In this document: positions 3,829-51,615 of the stretch, one piece after another
How positions within the stretch are numbered: position 1 is the stretch's first letter
Layout: every line of letters starts with the position of its first letter
Source of the DNA: Archangiaceae bacterium
GTDB lineage: Bacteria; Myxococcota; Myxococcia; Myxococcales; Myxococcaceae
Direction: 5' to 3'
Assembly (NCBI GenBank): GCA_043750125.1
Contig: JAYVCD010000031.1
Location: 1 to 51,615, forward strand
Length of the DNA: 51,615 nucleotides
The notes under the pieces: generated by a model
Database searches by the model: none
Seen by the model: only the letters and a program-made list of their open reading frames with translations
Told to the model about the DNA's origin: nothing
Made by a program: the position numbers and the translations under genes

Positions 3829-4020
3829 ATGCTCGCCCGTCTGCCGGGCCTTCGCGAAGTGGTCCTCAGCAACGGCACCGCGTTGAAGTTCGGCGCAATG
3901 GCGATGCCCGAGCTGCGGCGCCTGATCGTGCACTCTCGAGGTCTCAACGCCGAGGTGCTGCGATCGGTCGGTGAGGCCCAACTCCCTCGCCTCGAACAAC
4001 TCTCGCTGAGCGGAATGAGG
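3829..4020 (+). pseudogene. Leucine-rich-repeat protein fragment
   Basis: LPGLREVVLS...MPELRRLIVHSRGL...LPRLEQLSLSG has LxxLxxLxL periodicity; both ends are missing. Confidence 0.5.
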
Positions 4021-4034
4021 TCAGGCGTGAGTCT

Positions 4035-4198
4035 GCCCGACCTCTCTGCGAGCGAAGCGCTTCGACTGCGTACTTGCCGCCCTCGACCCTCCGCAAGTAC
4101 GAGCCCACGTCGAGGTCTCCCATGGGATCGCATGCGATAATCCCGCCGGAGTTGAGGCGGAGGTGGGCCAGGGTTTTCACTTCCCGGACCACGGCCAT
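4035..4198 (-). pseudogene. N-terminal fragment of a DUF4241-like protein
   Basis: LRLNSGGIIACDPM...YLRRVEGGKYAV resembles the LxxPSGxIIACDP...RxVxPGxYPV motif of DUF4241; similarity ends after about 50 aa. Confidence 0.45.
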
Positions 4199-4243
4199 GC
4201 GCGCCGCCCCCGCATTGAGCAGGCCTGCCGTACCCCGACGGCT

Positions 4244-4777
4244 TCAACGGCATCTGGTCCTGACGATGTGGGAGCCGGTCGGGGCGGCACTCGAGCACTC
4301 ATATCCAGCGGTTTCGTCAGACCTGAGGCGAAGGGCTACGGCGACAGCAACGTTTGCACTCACCTGCGCCTGATTTGCTTCGCCCCCTGAAACGCCGCAA
4401 AGGAATTGCCAGGTCGCAAACGCATTTTTTCGCTTCTTGACGCCCCATCTTCCAGGCAACGCCGTTCGCGTCTCGAATAAATCGCGCTGCACGAGAACGT
4501 CGCACCCGTGTTCAAAACCTTTGCGGGTCGCCATCGCAGCAAAATGATTCAAGGTCTCAGCTTCAGGACCGGTCACCTCCACAACACCCACTGTCTGGTA
4601 CACGGGTGATTCTCGAACCTCTTTCGTCTCGTACAAGATCACGGGAGGTTGGGTCGGAGCCTTGAGATGGAAGCCCAGGTCAGTTTGAACGAAGTTCGAT
4701 CTCAACCCGGTGCACCCAATGGCAAGCCAAGATACGGTTACCAACACAAACTGAAGCCGAATCGAAGACATTGTCAT
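4244..4777 (-). CDS. Hypothetical lipoprotein
   Basis: MSSIRLQFVLVTVSWLAIGC lipobox-like signal; C-terminal CSSAAPTGSHIVRTRCR motif; lower GC than the flanks. Confidence 0.55.
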   Translation of the reverse strand: MTMSSIRLQFVLVTVSWLAIGCTGLRSNFVQTDLGFHLKAPTQPPVILYETKEVRESPVYQTVGVVEVTGPEAETLNHFAAMATRKGFEHGCDVLVQRDLFETRTALPGRWGVKKRKNAFATWQFLCGVSGGEANQAQVSANVAVAVALRLRSDETAGYECSSAAPTGSHIVRTRCR

Positions 4778-5013
4778 TGATTGAGACTCCCGACCTGATG
4801 AAGGAATTGCACTTGGCGGACTCGCTGTCTGTAGGCGGGTGGCCGTCAGATGTGACACGCGGATGTAGACAGTCACTCCGTCTCTTGCTAGGGAATTTCC
4901 ATCAGGCCCGAGAGACGCAGTCGTCGCAGGTGCCTGAGTGCCCCCTGCCCTTCGACCAGCGCGCGAACGTCAGCGGGTGTCTGCAGCATCGCTCGCGAGG
5001 CTCGACTGCGAAG

Positions 5014-12431: not shown

Positions 12432-13862
12432 TCAGGACGGCTCGGACCCGGTGGTTTTCAAGTCGAGCCGCTTCATCTTCCGCCAGAGGGTGGTGGGAGA
12501 AATTCCCAATTGTTCCGCGACATGGGCCAGGTCGGCCGGAGATTTTTCCAATGCGGCTGTAATGGCCCGCCGCTCGGCGTCGTTGACCGCGTTGGCCAGG
12601 GTCCCGGTGGGAATCGCCATTTCGGTGGTGGGAGTCGAGCGCCCCGAAATCCCCACGGGGTCGGACCTCGATGTCGCGCGGGTGCGCAGCGGAAAGTCGA
12701 TCGGCATCAACTCTTCGGTCTCGCTCAAGGCGGCGGCCTGCTCGACCAGGTTCTCGAGCTCGCGAACGTTGCCAGGAAAGTCGTGCTTCATCAGGTGCTC
12801 GGCGGCGTTCTGCGACAAGCGGTGCTTGCGAACGTTTCGCTCATTGGCGCGTTGCAGAAAGTGCTCAGCCAACACCGGAACATCGTCGAGCCGGTCGCGC
12901 AGCGGAGGGACGGTGAGGCTGACCACGTTCAGCCGGTAGAAGAGGTCCTGGCGAAAGCGCTTCTCTTCCACTTCCCGCTCGATGTCCCGGTTGGTGGCGG
13001 CGACGGTGCGGACATCGACCTTCAGCGAGCCGCTCTCGCCGACCCGACGCACCTCGCCTTCCTGCAGCACGCGCAGCAACTTGCTCTGAAAGCCGGTGGT
13101 GGTCTCGGTGACTTCGTCGATGAACAGGGTTCCGCCGTGGGCCTCTTCGAACAAGCCTCGGCGGGCTTTGACTGCGCCGGTGAAGGCGCCGCGCGCGTGG
13201 CCGAACAGCTCGCTTTCCAACAGGCTCTCGGTGATCGCCGCGCAGTTGACGGGGACGAAGGGGTTCGCCTTTCGCCGAGAGAGAGTGTGCACCGCGCGCG
13301 CGACGAGCTCTTTGCCGGTGCCGGACTCGCCGGTAATCAGCACCGTGGCATCGGAAGGAGCCACCCGAGACAGGCGGCTGATCAAGTCGCGCATCGGCTG
13401 GCTGCGCCCGACCAGCGACGACAACCCGTGACGTTGGTTGAATTCTCCGGCGAAGAGGTCGACCTGGGAAATCAGGTGCGCCCGCTCGAGCGCCTTGTGC
13501 ACCCGGTGAACGAGCTCGCCTTCCTTGAACGGCTTGGTGATGTAGTCGTAGGCCCCGCGGCGCATCGCATCGACCGCAGACTCGATGGATCCATAGGCGG
13601 TCATCACGATCACCTGGGCGTGCGGCACCACCTCCAAAGCGCGCTTGAGCAGGGTGAGCCCGTCGATCGGTTCCATCTTCAAATCGGTGAGCAGCAGGTC
13701 CACCGGGTGGGCCGCGAGCATGCTCAGCGCTTCTTCCCCGCTGCCCGCTTCGTCGACCTGGTACCCCTCGGCGCGCAGCAACATCGCGGTCGTCGAGCGC
13801 ATGTTGCGCTGATCATCGACGACCAGGACCTTGCCCTTCGATTCTGAACTCTGAGGATCCAT
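12432..13862 (-). CDS. sigma54-dependent response regulator (REC-AAA+-Fis HTH), probable Nla19/PxrR orthologue
   Basis: VLVVDD receiver, GESGTGKE, ESELFGH, GAFTGA, RFRQDLFYRLNV, PGNVRELEN, LGISPTTLWRK; adjacent to the Pxr-like RNA. Confidence 0.93.
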   Translation of the reverse strand: MDPQSSESKGKVLVVDDQRNMRSTTAMLLRAEGYQVDEAGSGEEALSMLAAHPVDLLLTDLKMEPIDGLTLLKRALEVVPHAQVIVMTAYGSIESAVDAMRRGAYDYITKPFKEGELVHRVHKALERAHLISQVDLFAGEFNQRHGLSSLVGRSQPMRDLISRLSRVAPSDATVLITGESGTGKELVARAVHTLSRRKANPFVPVNCAAITESLLESELFGHARGAFTGAVKARRGLFEEAHGGTLFIDEVTETTTGFQSKLLRVLQEGEVRRVGESGSLKVDVRTVAATNRDIEREVEEKRFRQDLFYRLNVVSLTVPPLRDRLDDVPVLAEHFLQRANERNVRKHRLSQNAAEHLMKHDFPGNVRELENLVEQAAALSETEELMPIDFPLRTRATSRSDPVGISGRSTPTTEMAIPTGTLANAVNDAERRAITAALEKSPADLAHVAEQLGISPTTLWRKMKRLDLKTTGSEPS

Positions 13863-13883: not shown

Positions 13884-15842
13884 TCAGCCCTTCTTGCGAA
13901 GCACCCGCTTTTCACCCACCCGTAGAGTTATCTTCTGGGCGTCGAAGTGTTCCGCCAAGGGAATCAAAAACTTTCTCGAGAGCCCGGTCATTTCTTTGAA
14001 CTGCTGAGTGGTGATTTCCCCCTTACCCTTGAGGTGGGCGACCAGCCGCTCTTCGAGTGCCTTGAGCGCGGTCGAGGAGAACCACAGCTCTGCCGCTCGA
14101 CTGACCTGCCCTTCTGAGGTGAGCACCTTGAGCAGCTCGAGCACCCGGGCCTCGGGCAACCGCAGCGCCCCCCCCAACTCGGCCAATAACGGCGGCTGCA
14201 GGCCGGCCTTGTCCAGCAGGCCCAGCAACTTCTGGCGATCATCTCCCGCCCGGCCTTCGAGCGCCCGGCGACGACCCTTCAGCCGGGCCAGCTGACCGTC
14301 GGTTTCCAGCCGCCCCGCTTCGACTCCGGCGGCGAGCAGCTTGGCGAACGCCCGTTCCTGGGTGACGCCCAGCTTCTGGCGCAGCTCTTCGCGCGGCATC
14401 CCGTCCTGCTCGGGTTGGCCCTGGTGGAACGTCTCGAGCATCGCGGCCGCGCGCGCCCCCAGCCCGGCAAAGACATCGGCCCCCAGGTACCGGCGGGCGT
14501 CCTTGTCGACGAGCACCAGCCGGCCCCGCGCCGCTCCGACTTCCAGCACCCGGGAAAGCTCTTTGGAAGGCATCCCGACCTTGGCGTAGAGCTCCTTCTC
14601 GGTCAGCCCCGCGTAGCCGGCTTCGGTGAGCAGCCAGGCGACCCGCGCGTCCACGTCGGCGGCGGCGAAGGCTTGCAGCTTGTCGGCAGAGCCCCGCTTT
14701 CGGCGCGGAGGGTTGAGCGTCAACACCCGCCCCCCGGCGAGGGTCGCTCCCCGTCCCTCGAGCGCGCGTGAGCCCCGAAGAATGAACCGCTGGTTGGGCA
14801 GCGCGGCCAACGCAGTCGCCAGCCGCAGCTGCGCAAAACAGCGCTCGCCCGGACGCAGGGCGTCCACGTCGAGCAGGCGGACCGAGACTTCGACGTGGGC
14901 GGTGCCCAGCGACAGCAGTTGGCGACTGCGGCGGGGCAACGGCTGCGGCACCGAGGGCAGCAGGCTGAGCTCTACGTCGATCACCCGCGCCGCCGGAAGC
15001 TCTCCCGCGCGCACCACCGCCATCCCGCGCTTCACGTCATCGGCTTCGAGGTCGGCGAGGTTCAGCGCGACGCGCTCTCCGGGGCCCGCCTTCGAGACTC
15101 CCAGGGCGTGAACCTGAATCGAGCGAACGCGAAACGGGCCCGGCATTCCCGGCAGCAGCGACACCGTGTCTTCCACCGCCAGCTGCCCTGAGAGCAGCGT
15201 GCCGGTGACCACGGTTCCAAACCCTTTGAGGGAAAAGGCGCGATCCACGGGAAGAAACGCGGGGCCTTCCACCGGTCGGGTCCGCGCGCTGTTCAACGCC
15301 TCAGGCGCGTACAGCACCTCACCCTTCGCCAGCGCCTGGCACTGGGCAGCAATCTCGTCCTTCAGCTGATCGAGGCCTTCGCCGGTGCGGGTGCTCACGC
15401 ACAGCAGCGGAGCTCCTTCGAGAAACGTCCCCGGCGTCAGCGTGCGCAGATCTGCCTCGAGCAGCGCCAGCCAGCCCTCGCCCAGGCCCGGAAGCAGGTC
15501 TGCCTTGGTGATGATCAGCAGTCCCGCCCGGACGCCCAGCAGGGTGCAGATGTCGACGTGCTCGCGGGTCTGCGGCATCACGCCTTCGTCGGCGGCGACC
15601 ACCAGCAGCGCAAGGTCGATGCCCCCCGCGCCGGCAGCCATCGCCTTGACGAAGCGCTCGTGGCCCGGGACGTCAATCACTCCCACCTGTCGGCCATCGG
15701 GCAACGTCAGATGTGCAAAGCCCAGCTCGGTGGTGATCCCGCGCTTTTTTTCTTCGGGCAACCGGTCGGTATCGATCCCGGTCAGGGCCTTCACCAGCGA
15801 CGTCTTGCCGTGGTCGACGTGACCTGCGGTTCCGACAATCAC
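13884..15842 (-). CDS. selB: Selenocysteine-specific elongation factor
   Basis: GTG start [50 protein letters not shown]-terminal winged helix [15 protein letters not shown]...RVGEKR. Confidence 0.96.
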
Positions 15843-16435
15843 ATCAGGGCCCGAAAGCGCTGGTCGGTCGAGAGGTCGTAGTCCCAAGGGAAGACAAAGA
15901 AGGCGCCTGATTTTTCCCAATAGAAATCAGGGGCGAAGCCCTTCGGTCGGCAGACCAGCGCGGTGGTCGAGATCGCCTTCGCACCCGCGACCTTCACCAG
16001 TTCCGACGCGAGGTCCAGCGTGTCTCCTGAAGCGGCGATGTCGTCGACGATCATCACCCGTCGGCCCTTGAGGCCTTTGGGCATCACGCCCGAGAGCTTG
16101 GGAGCAGCGGACACTCCCTGGTCGCGGCTGCGCCTTGAAATCCGCACCGGGTAGAACTCCACTTTCAGCGCGCTGGCCAATGCGCCCCCGACGAACACGC
16201 CCCCATGCGCGACGCCGACCACCGCGTCCGGGCGGAACTTCTTTGCGATCTTCAACGCCAGCTGCTGCACCACCGCATCGAACTGGGCCCACGACAGCTC
16301 GCGCGCAGTGCTGTGGGAACCCGACCGGTCGATGCCCTCGAGCATCGCAGGCGATTCGGGCTTCTTGCGCGCCCGCACCGGTCGGGCCGGGGCCTTCGTC
16401 TTCTTCTTCGGGGTGGGTTTCTTTTTCGGTGCCAT
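15839..16435 (-). CDS. Type I phosphoribosyltransferase with a Lys-rich N-terminal tail
   Basis: LSWAQFD, VVGVAHGG, VMIVDDIAASGDTL (PRPP loop), FFVFPWD; stop overlaps the selB start. Confidence 0.85.
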   Translation of the reverse strand: MAPKKKPTPKKKTKAPARPVRARKKPESPAMLEGIDRSGSHSTARELSWAQFDAVVQQLALKIAKKFRPDAVVGVAHGGVFVGGALASALKVEFYPVRISRRSRDQGVSAAPKLSGVMPKGLKGRRVMIVDDIAASGDTLDLASELVKVAGAKAISTTALVCRPKGFAPDFYWEKSGAFFVFPWDYDLSTDQRFRALM

Positions 16436-16440
16436 GAGGT

Positions 16441-18456
16441 TCACGGAGCGCAGGAGTCGAAGCCGAGGATCGCGAAGTGGGTCGAAACCCGAAGCCCGCC
16501 GAGGCGACAGGTCGAGCTGCCCGGGCAGACGGTAGCCCCGATGCAGGCCTGGAAGCAGGCTTTGCCCGTGCCAGTCGAAGGCGCCTGCAGCGTGCCGCAC
16601 ACCCCCGAAGCGCAGTCCGAGTCCTGGTTGCAGGGGCTGGCGCCGCCGAGAATTCCGCTCGCATGCGAGGGCCTGCAGCGCAGCACCAGCGACTGGCCGG
16701 CATCGAGCGGGTCTGCATCGGGAACACAGCGCGCGCCCCCGTCGGGGCGGCAGTCCTGATCCACCTCGCAGCCGCTGCCGCCACACAGCTTCGCGGTCAG
16801 CAGCTTGTCGTCGGGCGTTCCGGGCACGCCGTCGAAGCCTTTGAAGCCGAGGAAGGTGAGGGGCGCGCATTGCAGCGGGCCGGTGGGCGAGCCGGCATCG
16901 GCGGCGCAGTCGGCGGCGGTGTCGCACCCTTCCGCGCAGTAGCCGACCCGCGCGCTTCCCCGCCCGTCCTCGAGCAGGCAGAAGCCCGACTTGCACTGGG
17001 AATTGAGGCTGCACTCGGCGCCGGCGACCCGGGGACCTGCAGGGGGCGCGCAGCTGGTCACGAAGGAAGGGGTGTAGCCCGGCACAAAGCGGCTGCGGCA
17101 CGCGATGTTGGCTCCGTATTCAGCGCAGCCCACCGACGAAGTGCAGGCGGGTCGACAGCCCTTGACGGTCGCATTGGCCACCGCCCCGGGGAAGACGAAG
17201 TCGCCATCGCAGCTGCCGGTGCGCCCGGCGACGGTGCAGTCTTCGTCGGTCTTGCAGGCGGAATAACAGAAGAACTTCACGCTCGAGAGCAACGGGTCGG
17301 CCTGACACGAGCCGCTGCGACACGACTTGTCGGCGGTGAGCGTGCCGGCGTCGGGAAGCACCGAGTTTTTGCAGGGGGAAAGTCCGGGCGAGGCGCCGAC
17401 CGAGAACTGACAGACGGCGGTGAGGTTCGCGCTCGCGGAAGGATCATCGTACGGCTCGCACGACTGGCTCGCGTTGCACGCCGAGTCGCGGGTGCACGCG
17501 GAGCCCCAGCCATTGTCGGGGTAGCACAGCCCGTAAAGTCGACCGTTGAAGTCGCCTTTGAAGGGTTGGCATTTCTCGCTGGAAGGACAGGCCCCCGAGA
17601 GGTTCAGGTCGCAGAAGGTCCGGCAGGACGACGTGGTCGCGCTGTCGGGGATGCAGGTGAGGTTGGGCTGACAGTTGCTGGTCGAGGCGCTGCTGCTCGG
17701 GCGGGTGCAGGCCTCGCGGTACCCCTTCAGGTTGGGCTGGGGCAGGTAGCAGACGCCCAGCGGGCCGCCTTGATCGAAGACCAGGCCGCTGCCGCCCAGG
17801 TACGTCAGCCGGTAACAGATTTCGCCCGCCTTGCAGCTCGGGCTGCTGAGGCTGCACCCATTGAGGCAGGTGTTGATGCCTCCGAGGGCGACGCAGATCA
17901 GCCCCGAATCGCACGCGGTGCCGGTGGGGCAGGCGGCGTTGAGCTTGGCGCCGGAGCAGACCCCGAGGGCTCCGCAGGTCAGGCCGTTGGGGCAATGCTT
18001 GTTCTCGAGGCAGTGAACGCAGGCTCCGCTGGTGACCTCGCAGTGGGCGGGTCCAGGAGGGGAACATTGCGCGTCGGTGGTGCAGAGCACGCACTTGTTG
18101 CTGGGGTCGCACACCGGGCGGCTCGACGGGCAGTCGGAATGGGCCCCGCACTCGGCACAGGTGAAGACATCAGCGCGACAGGTGCCGCTGGCGCAGTCCG
18201 AGTTGACGACGCAGCCGGTGAACTTGCAGGCGGCGGCGACGCAGTTCTCGCCCAGGCCACACTCGACATCGTCGGTGCATGGGGCGCGGGCGACGCAGGT
18301 TCCGGTTCGGCAGACGCCCTCGAACGCAGCCCGCTTGCAGTCCTTGCTCGTCTCGCACGGGGGACCCTCGATGACGATCGGGCCGGCGTCGGGGGTCACG
18401 GGCGCGGGGCAGGCGATCAGGAGCACCGCGAAGCTGAGAGCAAAAAGGCACCGCAT
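16441..18456 (-). CDS. Large Cys-rich repeat lipoprotein
   Basis: Lipobox LLIAC; dozens of CxxDxDC/CxxGxxC repeats. Confidence 0.8.
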   Translation of the reverse strand: MRCLFALSFAVLLIACPAPVTPDAGPIVIEGPPCETSKDCKRAAFEGVCRTGTCVARAPCTDDVECGLGENCVAAACKFTGCVVNSDCASGTCRADVFTCAECGAHSDCPSSRPVCDPSNKCVLCTTDAQCSPPGPAHCEVTSGACVHCLENKHCPNGLTCGALGVCSGAKLNAACPTGTACDSGLICVALGGINTCLNGCSLSSPSCKAGEICYRLTYLGGSGLVFDQGGPLGVCYLPQPNLKGYREACTRPSSSASTSNCQPNLTCIPDSATTSSCRTFCDLNLSGACPSSEKCQPFKGDFNGRLYGLCYPDNGWGSACTRDSACNASQSCEPYDDPSASANLTAVCQFSVGASPGLSPCKNSVLPDAGTLTADKSCRSGSCQADPLLSSVKFFCYSACKTDEDCTVAGRTGSCDGDFVFPGAVANATVKGCRPACTSSVGCAEYGANIACRSRFVPGYTPSFVTSCAPPAGPRVAGAECSLNSQCKSGFCLLEDGRGSARVGYCAEGCDTAADCAADAGSPTGPLQCAPLTFLGFKGFDGVPGTPDDKLLTAKLCGGSGCEVDQDCRPDGGARCVPDADPLDAGQSLVLRCRPSHASGILGGASPCNQDSDCASGVCGTLQAPSTGTGKACFQACIGATVCPGSSTCRLGGLRVSTHFAILGFDSCAP

Positions 18457-50163: not shown

Positions 50164-50838
50164 ATGACCCCGAACCGTCGGCGCTATACGCGGGTCCCCA
50201 CCCGGCAGATGCGCAGCCTTTTCCGCGCGCACGGCCTCGGGCCGGCCAATGGGTGGGTGGTCGACATCTCGCTGGGCGGTGTCTTTCTTCGCACCTCGTG
50301 GCCCCTGCCGGTGGGCGAGCGACTGGCGATCGAGCTGCCGCGGGGCGAGGCGATTCCGGTCTGTGTGCAGGGGCGGGTCGTCAGCAGCACCCCCGCGGGG
50401 ACCCGGGCGGCGCGCTCGGGAATGGGAGTGCGCTTCGATGCCCTCGACCCGATGACCCTCAACGATCTGCGCGAGCTGGTGGGCTGCCTGGCTCCGGCCG
50501 GGACCCACCTCGAGGTTCGGGCCGAAGACGTCGAAGTGACTGCGGTGGCCAAAGCGGCGGCGTCCGTTCCCGAGCCCAGGGGACCGCTGCCGAAGTTGAC
50601 CGCGGCCCAGCCGATTCCGATTCCCGCCAGCGTCCCTTCCGCGCCTCGCGCCCAGCTTCACGCCCTGACCACCGCGGGCGAAAACGAGCGGCTGCGCAAT
50701 CACGCCAAAGGTCTGCTGATGCAGGTCGGAGATCTTCAGATGGAAATTTCTGCCCGAGACCGGGAAGTCGCCACCCTTCGAGAAGCGGTGGCGCGCCTGC
50801 AGGCCTCAAATGCCCAGCTGCTGCGAAACCCGCGCTGA
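50164..50838 (+). CDS. PilZ-domain protein with a C-terminal coiled coil
   Basis: RRYTR (RxxxR), DISLGG (DxSxxG), GMGVRF; heptad tail. Confidence 0.85.
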   Translation: MTPNRRRYTRVPTRQMRSLFRAHGLGPANGWVVDISLGGVFLRTSWPLPVGERLAIELPRGEAIPVCVQGRVVSSTPAGTRAARSGMGVRFDALDPMTLNDLRELVGCLAPAGTHLEVRAEDVEVTAVAKAAASVPEPRGPLPKLTAAQPIPIPASVPSAPRAQLHALTTAGENERLRNHAKGLLMQVGDLQMEISARDREVATLREAVARLQASNAQLLRNPR

Positions 50839-50840
50839 AG

Positions 50841-51242
50841 TTATTTTACCGCGGTCATGTCGACGGCGTTCCCTTCGGCCTTCCAGCCTTTCATTCCGTC
50901 TTTCATCGCTGCCACATCGGTATGCCCTGCTTCAGCCGCGCGACCCGCGGCAGTGTGTGAGGCCGTTCAGGTTCTGCTCGTGCAGTAGAAGACCAGAGGC
51001 CGGTTCTTGTCGGACGGCAGCTGCTTCAAGTCGTACTCGCTCGACGAGGTGAGCAGCACCGCGCCGGGAACCACTCCTGCCGTCTTGCGGTACTCGTCGT
51101 CGTTGGCGTCGACCGGGGTGGCACTGCCGGCTTTCACCAGGGCCGCGACCTCCGCGACCGTCGCTTCCTTCACGTTCGGGTTGTGTTTGGTGCAGCCCGC
51201 CAAAAACAGGCCCGCTGCAAGGGTGATCCATAGATTTCTCAT
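50841..51242 (-). CDS. Rhodanese-domain lipoprotein, probable selenoprotein (Sec92 at TGA 50967-50969)
   Basis: Lipobox LAGC; VDAN...VPGA...LVFYCTSRT-TGA-TASHTAAGRAAEAGHTDVAAMKDGMKGWKAEG...TAA (50841). The rhodanese fold is complete only on read-through. Confidence 0.85.
50935..50951 (-). promoter_or_regulatory. Bacterial SECIS-like hairpin
   Basis: GCCGCG-GGTCG-CGCGGC begins 15 nt after the TGA; apical loop starts with GGU. Confidence 0.7.
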
Positions 51243-51283
51243 GGTTCAAAAACCTTAGCCTGCGCATGGTAACGATGCTGCAA

Positions 51284-51615
51284 ATGCGACGGGGGCTGAC
51301 ACTTCTTTTCATTCTGGCGCTCAGCGGATGCATGACCCGGTACCGCAAAGCCAACGAGCTGGCGAAGAGCGGAAAGTTCGTCGAAGCAGCAGAGCTGTTC
51401 GACCAGCTGGCCAAAGAGAACCCCACCGACCCCGAGCTGCCCGGGCTGGTCGAGACGGCGCATCAGCGCGCGGTGGACCAGGCGCTCGGCAATGCGCGGC
51501 GGCAACGGCTGGCCGGAGATCCACACAGCTCGCAACAGTGGTTCTCGCGGGGGCTCGAGCTTCGGGACCGCTGGAACCTCAAGCTCAATGGCGCGCTCGA
51601 GAGCACGGTCGACGA
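51284..51615 (+). CDS. TPR-like lipoprotein, 3'-partial (runs off the window)
   Basis: MRRGLTLLFILALSGC lipobox; YRKANELAKSGKFVEAAELFDQLAKENP TPR pattern; open to the window end. Confidence 0.7.
   Translation, partial: MRRGLTLLFILALSGCMTRYRKANELAKSGKFVEAAELFDQLAKENPTDPELPGLVETAHQRAVDQALGNARRQRLAGDPHSSQQWFSRGLELRDRWNLKLNGALESTVD

Follow-up and report, generated by a model that had tools for sequence, protein, structure and literature searches.

Organization of the locus

The window, that is the whole stretch of 51,615 nucleotides of Archangiaceae DNA that was analysed, harbors a minus-strand open reading frame that starts with the ATG at position 51242, codes for 91 amino acids with FYCTSRT at the C-terminus and ends at a TGA codon (50967..51242 including the stop). 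Translation revealed that the frame stays open for 41 further codons before a TAA is reached, as an earlier note on this DNA had described. The features of the read-through gene and of its surroundings are given in Table 1.

Table 1. Position, strand and description of the features at the rhodanese locus and of selB in the window
Feature	Position	Strand	Description
Full read-through coding sequence	50841..51242	-	133 residues and TAA stop; predicted rhodanese lipoprotein, Sec at residue 92 (translation)
Signal peptide with lipobox L14-A15-G16-C17	51192..51242	-	MRNLWITLAAGLFLAGC; pattern read from the translation, after a hydrophobic stretch
TGC codon of Cys87	50982..50984	-	canonical rhodanese catalytic position, 3' of strand LVFY
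In-frame UGA, predicted to be read as U92	50967..50969	-	five residues C-terminal of Cys87; Cys codon in relatives
41 codons 3' of the UGA	50844..50966	-	TASHTAAGRAAEAGHTDVAAMKDGMKGWKAEGNAVDMTAVK; complete the rhodanese fold
bSECIS-type hairpin	50935..50951	-	5' arm 50951-50946, loop GGUCG 50945-50941, 3' arm 50940-50935; encodes A-A-G-R-A-A
TAA stop of the read-through frame	50843-50841	-	translation
PilZ-domain protein gene	50164-50838	+	convergent with the rhodanese gene; stop codons 3 nt apart
Divergent ORF, runs off the window end	51266-51613	+	lipoprotein-like signal LSGC; sub-threshold TPR match (23.6 bits, cut-off 27 bits)
selB, Sec-specific elongation factor	13884..15920	-	TIGR00475 over cut-off (281.2 bits); about 35 kb from the rhodanese gene

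The active-site motif of the translated product is C-x4-U-x-x-S, with U92-T-A-S95 at its C-terminal end, and S95 was invariant in the alignment of the read-through protein with 16 full-length database homologues. The lipobox consensus is [LVI][ASTVI][GAS]C, and the LAGC at residues 14-17, which the earlier note had also pointed out, is present as a sequence pattern. A lipobox-like motif was identified in 44 of the 55 shortened database homologues described below. Judging from these N-terminal residues, the protein is probably exported and lipid-anchored via signal peptidase II.

The TGA codon and the Cys/Sec pair in homologues

The database search yielded 71 homologues of the protein. Of these, 55, the ORF of the window included, end exactly four residues past the loop Cys and were thus cut at the UGA codon, while the other 16 run on with a Cys at +5. 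Both C87 and the residue at position 92 (C/U) were invariant in all 17 aligned sequences, namely the 16 full-length homologues and the read-through protein.

The genomes of relatives were searched for the same gene, and a match was obtained in 35 of 41; in 12 of them, the window's own genome included, the match was strong (E <= 6e-27) and carried exactly one in-frame TGA. These results were pooled, as 20 loci from the 41-genome search together with the best 80 of 263 relatives found in genome contigs, nearly all labelled Myxococcota. Across the 101 hits in these 100 loci the codon in the U92 column was TGA in 16, TGC in 79 and TGT in 6, and both C87 and C/U92 were invariant. Some of the pooled loci represent the same DNA twice; counted as distinct 54-nt segments, the set comprises 15 TGA forms and 83 Cys forms. 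In all 15 distinct TGA sequences, which come from 12 or more genomes of several genera, the codon falls in the same alignment column.

Cys is the usual counterpart of Sec in homologues. The earlier note had predicted Cys at position 92, and this residue was found there in 16 of 16 full-length homologues and in 85 of the 101 genomic hits, the remainder being TGA; neither Trp nor Arg, the residues it had named as evidence to the contrary, occurs at the aligned position in the homologues.

All 15 TGA forms have 38-41 open codons past the TGA. Over the first 30 of these codons, pairwise differences between the 15 forms amounted to 0.242, 0.227 and 0.493 at codon positions 1, 2 and 3, respectively; third positions are thus about twice as variable as first and second ones, which is the pattern of a coding sequence past the TGA. 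The frame itself is terminated by TGA in 5 of the 15 TGA forms, indicating that this codon is not generally reassigned.

The Cys-form paralogues from Myxococcota (FYCxxxxC[GTS]AS, 140-146 aa, annotated as 'rhodanese-related sulfurtransferase') are 43-62% identical to the protein of the window and resemble the Sec form in length, in the predicted signal peptide or lipobox, in the length of the loop and in the invariant residues. They differ from it in having Cys at +5, in the loop residues, which are A-N/S-x-K/R in Cys forms and T/S-S/N-R/K-x in Sec forms, and in the SECIS hairpin, which was found in none of the 83. Sec and Cys paralogues occur together in several genomes (e.g. G003, G005, G012, G013, G014, G016 and G020). 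One Myxococcales MAG contig (locus L043) carries tandem copies of the Cys form at 4001-4303 and 4541-4843.

A SECIS-type hairpin specific to the TGA forms

The sequence GCCGCG-GGUCG-CGCGGC, located 15 nt past the UGA, forms a perfect 6-bp stem with a 5-nt loop and an MFE of -11.4 kcal/mol, and the distance from the UGA to the apical loop is 21 nt. The GC stem and the GGUCG loop are therefore present as the earlier note had claimed. The bSECIS model, as given in the available text of PMC13188914, has an apical loop of 3-9 nt, a stem of 4-16 bp, a G in the first two loop positions, a UGA-loop distance of 16-37 nt and an MFE <= -7.5 kcal/mol. With 5 nt, 6 bp, GG, 21 nt and -11.4 kcal/mol, the hairpin of the window satisfies this model.

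An equally good stem-loop was found at a permitted distance after 38 of the 1406 TGA triplets of the window (2.7%; G+C content 65.5%), and the 76-nt fold around the UGA was no stabler than its shuffles (z = 0.58), so fold stability was dropped as evidence by itself. A hairpin in a single sequence is weak evidence, and its significance rests on conservation in relatives.

Alignment of the distinct segments revealed all six stem pairs in 14 of 15 TGA forms as against none of 83 Cys forms, and the GGTCG loop in 13 of 15 as against none of 83, so that the hairpin, which the earlier note had expected in relatives, is indeed kept in the TGA forms and is absent from the Cys forms. The exceptions are loci L009 and L014, both with a GAGCG loop; L014 forms only 4 of the 6 pairs. 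The Sec forms keep the peptide A-A-G-R-A-A with the codons GGU-CGN. The loop Gly is encoded by GGT in 14 of 14 TGA rows, whereas all three Cys rows with a Gly in this place use GGC.

Two of the pairs covary through synonymous third positions, namely pair 24-30 (CG 10, GC 3, GU 1) and pair 21-33 (CG 13, UA 1, UG 1). As the three rows with GC are closely related, the independent events behind the covariation are few in number. The proportion of paired cells was 92.4% versus 25.7-54.3% when the 3' partner was slid by 1-3 columns; in shuffles the observed pairing was reached in 1 of 500 and the covariation score in 3 of 500. RNAalifold predicted the same six pairs.

Selenocysteine machinery and support from other assemblies

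The selB that the earlier note had placed in the same window passes the TIGR00475 cut-off, and its product carries the Pfam domains GTP_EFTU, SelB-wing_2, SelB-wing_3 and Beta-barrel_SelB, thus including the winged-helix domains of SelB. The genes flanking selB code for a sigma-54-dependent response regulator and a phosphoribosyltransferase-domain protein (12432-13862 and 15839-17101, both on the minus strand), and neither is selA.

Elsewhere in the window's genome selD was found with 339.3 bits and one in-frame TGA (contig C278:3012-3932), so that SelD itself is probably a selenoprotein in this organism, as judged from its reading frame. A tRNA-Sec with the anticodon TCA was also found (65.1 bits). 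Searches with TIGR00474, PF03841 and the SelA of the same genus detected no selA in the bin of this genome, which is 89.4% complete and consists of 460 contigs; among relatives with the TGA gene, all five that were checked have a selA over the cut-off, and its absence here may be due to the incompleteness of the bin. Of the set selA, selC and selD that the earlier note had proposed to look for, selD and tRNA-Sec are therefore present alongside selB, while selA was found in the relatives and not in the bin itself.

Logan contigs from four runs of two studies (records 3, 8, 14 and 19) cover the TGA codon with no differing letter, one of the four runs being possibly the source of the window. TGC or TGT in reads, which the earlier note had named as counter-evidence, is thus not what these contigs carry; all four agree on TGA. 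Two 39-nt Logan records, 9 and 15, have one other letter each, at a position that is not given. The runs listed as holding the locus include no RNA run.

Several short records of the metagenome contigs start or end at 50925-50960 of the window, i.e. in the hairpin and its 3' flank, where the summed depth is up to 34 in X3 as against about 7 beside it. A conserved stretch that is common to related genes of the same samples may break the assembly graph at this place.

Fold and active-site loop

The read-through protein matched Pfam Rhodanese (PF00581) over residues 28-123 with 43.9 bits (cut-off 22.2), and this match depends on the region C-terminal to the TGA codon. An AlphaFold2 model built from the 17-sequence alignment had a mean pLDDT of 88, with values above 95 across the rhodanese domain. 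In the model the part past the UGA forms a helix (94-104), a strand (110-113) and a second helix (116-122); since these residues follow the UGA, the 91-aa product would be without the helices and the strand that complete the fold.

The best Foldseek matches, all with a probability of 1.00, were the single-domain rhodaneses 2hhg, 6mxv, 3nhv, GlpE (1gmx) and Sud (1qxn), the last of which is a periplasmic polysulfide-sulfur transferase. Profile alignment with the solved rhodaneses placed Cys87 on their catalytic Cys, FYC corresponding to FYC or YC, and indicated that the active-site loop exceeds the canonical CxxGxRS / CGGGFRS by two residues. A search of 1831 candidates, weak in itself, gave no scoring fused or multi-domain relatives.

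Distribution, phylogeny and gene neighbourhood

Ten weaker matches from the 41-genome search were inspected. Six of them, from other families of the order, have TGA at +5, the codon following FYCANPH, FYCANEF, FYCSGPK, FYCANEH, FYCNGPT and YCKSPT, respectively, and in every case a GC-rich hairpin follows with the same spacing. The remaining four comprise one repeat of a sequence already counted, one C-x-U, one canonical rhodanese without the stop and one without a significant match. A genome of the same order carries a different rhodanese (locus L131, G036:C4:22610-23219) in which TGA follows AYCT, two residues past the loop Cys, with a hairpin downstream; this is the C-x-U spacing of the catalogued form 3.

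A quick tree constructed from 97 distinct rows contained a branch uniting all 15 Sec rows with one Cys row (L006); its support was weak (SH-aLRT 83). The Sec label required two changes on this tree, a number as low being reached in 0 of 500 shuffles, and the well-supported branches force one change. The Sec forms may have a single origin.

The closest relative among the best 80 of the 263 genome-contig relatives is locus L039, from a MAG labelled Caulobacteraceae, which shows 72% identity, the same PilZ neighbour and the same hairpin. In the quick tree it falls among sequences of myxobacteria, so this contig is probably mis-binned.

The neighbourhood of 13 TGA loci, with 45 ORFs in all, was compared with Pfam, loci L002 and L017 being left out since no ORF there passed the G+C filters. 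No neighbour was conserved across these loci, and no arsenic or selenium gene appeared as a conserved neighbour, so the neighbours give no pointer to the substrate. The PilZ neighbour was found in the window and in L039 only. Two of the 13 loci, closely related to each other, have a gene for a monohaem cytochrome c immediately downstream on the same strand (L057:1671-2087 and L013:1041-1418), whose product might serve as a redox partner.

Proposed mechanism and alternative explanations

A signature of recoding is established at this locus by the pairing of Cys with Sec in homologues, a hairpin that is confined to the TGA forms, the coding constraint on the codons downstream of the TGA and the Sec machinery. 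On this basis the UGA is almost certainly decoded as selenocysteine, and gene calls that stop there end too early. We are highly confident in the reading of the gene as a whole, i.e. that it codes for an exported and probably lipid-anchored single-domain rhodanese of 133 residues in which a hairpin directs Sec into the position of the second Cys of a C-x4-C motif. C87 and U92 may then act as a redox pair.

In the proposed mechanism SelB and tRNA-Sec would decode the UGA as Sec under the direction of the SECIS hairpin lying within the coding region (6-bp GC stem, GGUCG loop), and Sec would take the place of the second Cys of the invariant C-x4-C pair in the lengthened active-site loop. U92 would be the attacking nucleophile that takes up sulfane sulfur or becomes oxidised, giving an intermediate of the selenopersulfide or selenenic type, which Cys87 would resolve to a selenenylsulfide. 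We infer these catalytic roles of U92 and C87 by analogy with other Cys/Sec redox pairs, and the protein would then be a periplasmic selenol/thiol-based sulfur-transfer or redox enzyme. Sec is reported as the catalytic residue of catalogued selenoproteins (PMC13188914).

The part of this reading that is most open to another explanation is the function. The protein may be a selenoprotein and nevertheless an ordinary sulfurtransferase, in which Cys87 carries the persulfide and U92 tunes or protects it, or it may be a reductase of oxyanions such as arsenate, selenite or tellurite that uses the enlarged loop, with no C87-U92 redox pair in either case. A longer active-site loop is characteristic of the phosphatase and arsenate-reductase branch of the rhodanese fold, and the loop here is two residues longer than CxxGxRS; Cys87 sits at the canonical catalytic position, and the monohaem cytochrome c directly downstream in L057 and L013 (2 of the 13 TGA loci) may also be read in this sense. 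Against this stand the invariance of C87 and C/U92 over the 101 hits, which argues for a pair acting together, the catalytic role reported for Sec in catalogued selenoproteins (PMC13188914), and the neighbourhoods of the 13 TGA loci, in which no arsenic or selenium gene is conserved. We consider such a function possible, though unlikely.

A wider proposal extends the redox pair to the family. The C-x4-U/C rhodaneses with the longer loop would form a separate class of periplasmic selenol/thiol oxidoreductases rather than sulfurtransferases, working through a Cys87-Sec92 selenenylsulfide cycle in largely aerobic myxobacteria of soil and sediment, with polysulfide, selenite or a similar inorganic chalcogen or oxyanion as the substrate; the Sec forms would descend from one conversion of a Cys paralogue, and the A-A-G-R-A-A segment of the protein would have been fixed by the SECIS hairpin. 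Taken with all its parts, this proposal is speculative and we regard it as doubtful.

Read-through of the UGA might also proceed without selenium, Cys or Trp being inserted by near-cognate suppression or at a selenium-independent local signal. The selenium evidence is indirect and selA was not found in the window's bin, both of which would suit such a read-through, but selB, tRNA-Sec and a selD with an in-frame TGA of its own all occur in the genome, selA is present in five of five relatives carrying the TGA gene, the hairpin fits the bSECIS model with GGU at the start of the loop, and the homologues have Cys at residue 92; we therefore consider selenium-free read-through very improbable. An origin of the TGA through nonsense mutation, pseudogene formation or misassembly, with at most a 91-residue fragment as the product, is hardly credible, even though the inspected public entries of the TGA form are annotated at about 91 aa (55 of 71 entries ending at the UGA codon), the hairpin by itself is within chance and selA is missing from the bin, because 15 distinct sequences, spread over at least 12 genomes and several genera, have the TGA at one and the same column, the 41 downstream codons are open with substitutions of the coding type, the hairpin occurs only in TGA forms, the contigs of four runs agree at the codon and the 91-aa product would be without the helices and the strand that complete the rhodanese fold.

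With the UGA read as Sec, the known selenoproteome of Myxococcota is extended, and the 55 of 71 public entries that end at the UGA codon represent a systematic annotation error. Sec and Cys paralogues side by side in the same genomes provide a natural comparison set, and as small soluble domains they are suited to probing the role of selenium in the rhodanese loop. The constraint that the hairpin places on the protein can be read directly from the A-A-G-R-A-A peptide and the GGU-CGN codons of the Sec forms.

Comparison with catalogued rhodanese selenoproteins

Rhodanese selenoproteins have so far been catalogued from prediction alone. The available text of a 2026 review (PMC13188914), together with that of a 2022 review (PMC9312934), distinguishes five forms, namely UxxS, with an exemplar from Geobacter sulfurreducens, UxxG in two forms, CxU (NF041203) and TsoB with UxxxxU (NF045694). 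The motif C-x4-U-x-x-S of the protein studied here fits both UxxS and the second Sec of UxxxxU.

Searches of the read-through protein against the NCBIfam selenoprotein models gave no match over a cut-off. The best match was NF045694 (TsoB), with an E value of 4.4e-09 and 35 bits against a cut-off of 805, residues 72-131 aligning with 100-160 of the profile, while NF041203 (rhodanese_LYCAU) reached 29.2 bits against a cut-off of 115. As both scores are below the cut-offs, the protein belongs to neither family.

By description, the protein resembles TsoB (form 5) in its rhodanese domain, in a loop whose two chalcogen residues are four apart and in its predicted membrane-associated, extracytoplasmic design. 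Unlike TsoB it has only 133 aa, is without the DsbD-like membrane domain and carries one UGA instead of two Sec, with Sec at the second position only and always Cys at the first. TsoB itself was over the cut-off in none of 301 Myxococcota genomes, a tally that includes one genome flagged as unpublished (G220), and the strong hits were all to the DsbD-like part.

The likeness to the LYCAU type (NF041203, form 3) lies in the small size of the rhodanese selenoprotein and in the presence of Cys and Sec in the same loop, and one relative genome has a C-x-U gene (L131); the spacing in the protein of the window is C-x4-U and not C-x-U. Form 1 (UxxS, PF00581), compared by its description in the available text of PMC13188914 and PMC9312934, shares the Pfam family, and U-T-A-S fits its motif. 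The exemplar of this form is from Geobacter sulfurreducens, whereas the protein of the window, a single domain of 133 residues, comes from Myxococcota.

The two reviews, PMC13188914 and PMC9312934, contain no mention of any term beginning with Myxococc, and in the available part of an older survey (PMC1794560) no rhodanese is given among the selenoproteins of Anaeromyxobacter. The earlier note had known of no characterised rhodanese selenoprotein in myxobacteria, which is consistent with the literature covered, and an earlier description of the same Sec position is possible beyond it. The kind of protein is already known, rhodanese selenoproteins being catalogued in the available text of PMC13188914, and the locus is a myxobacterial branch of that predicted kind.
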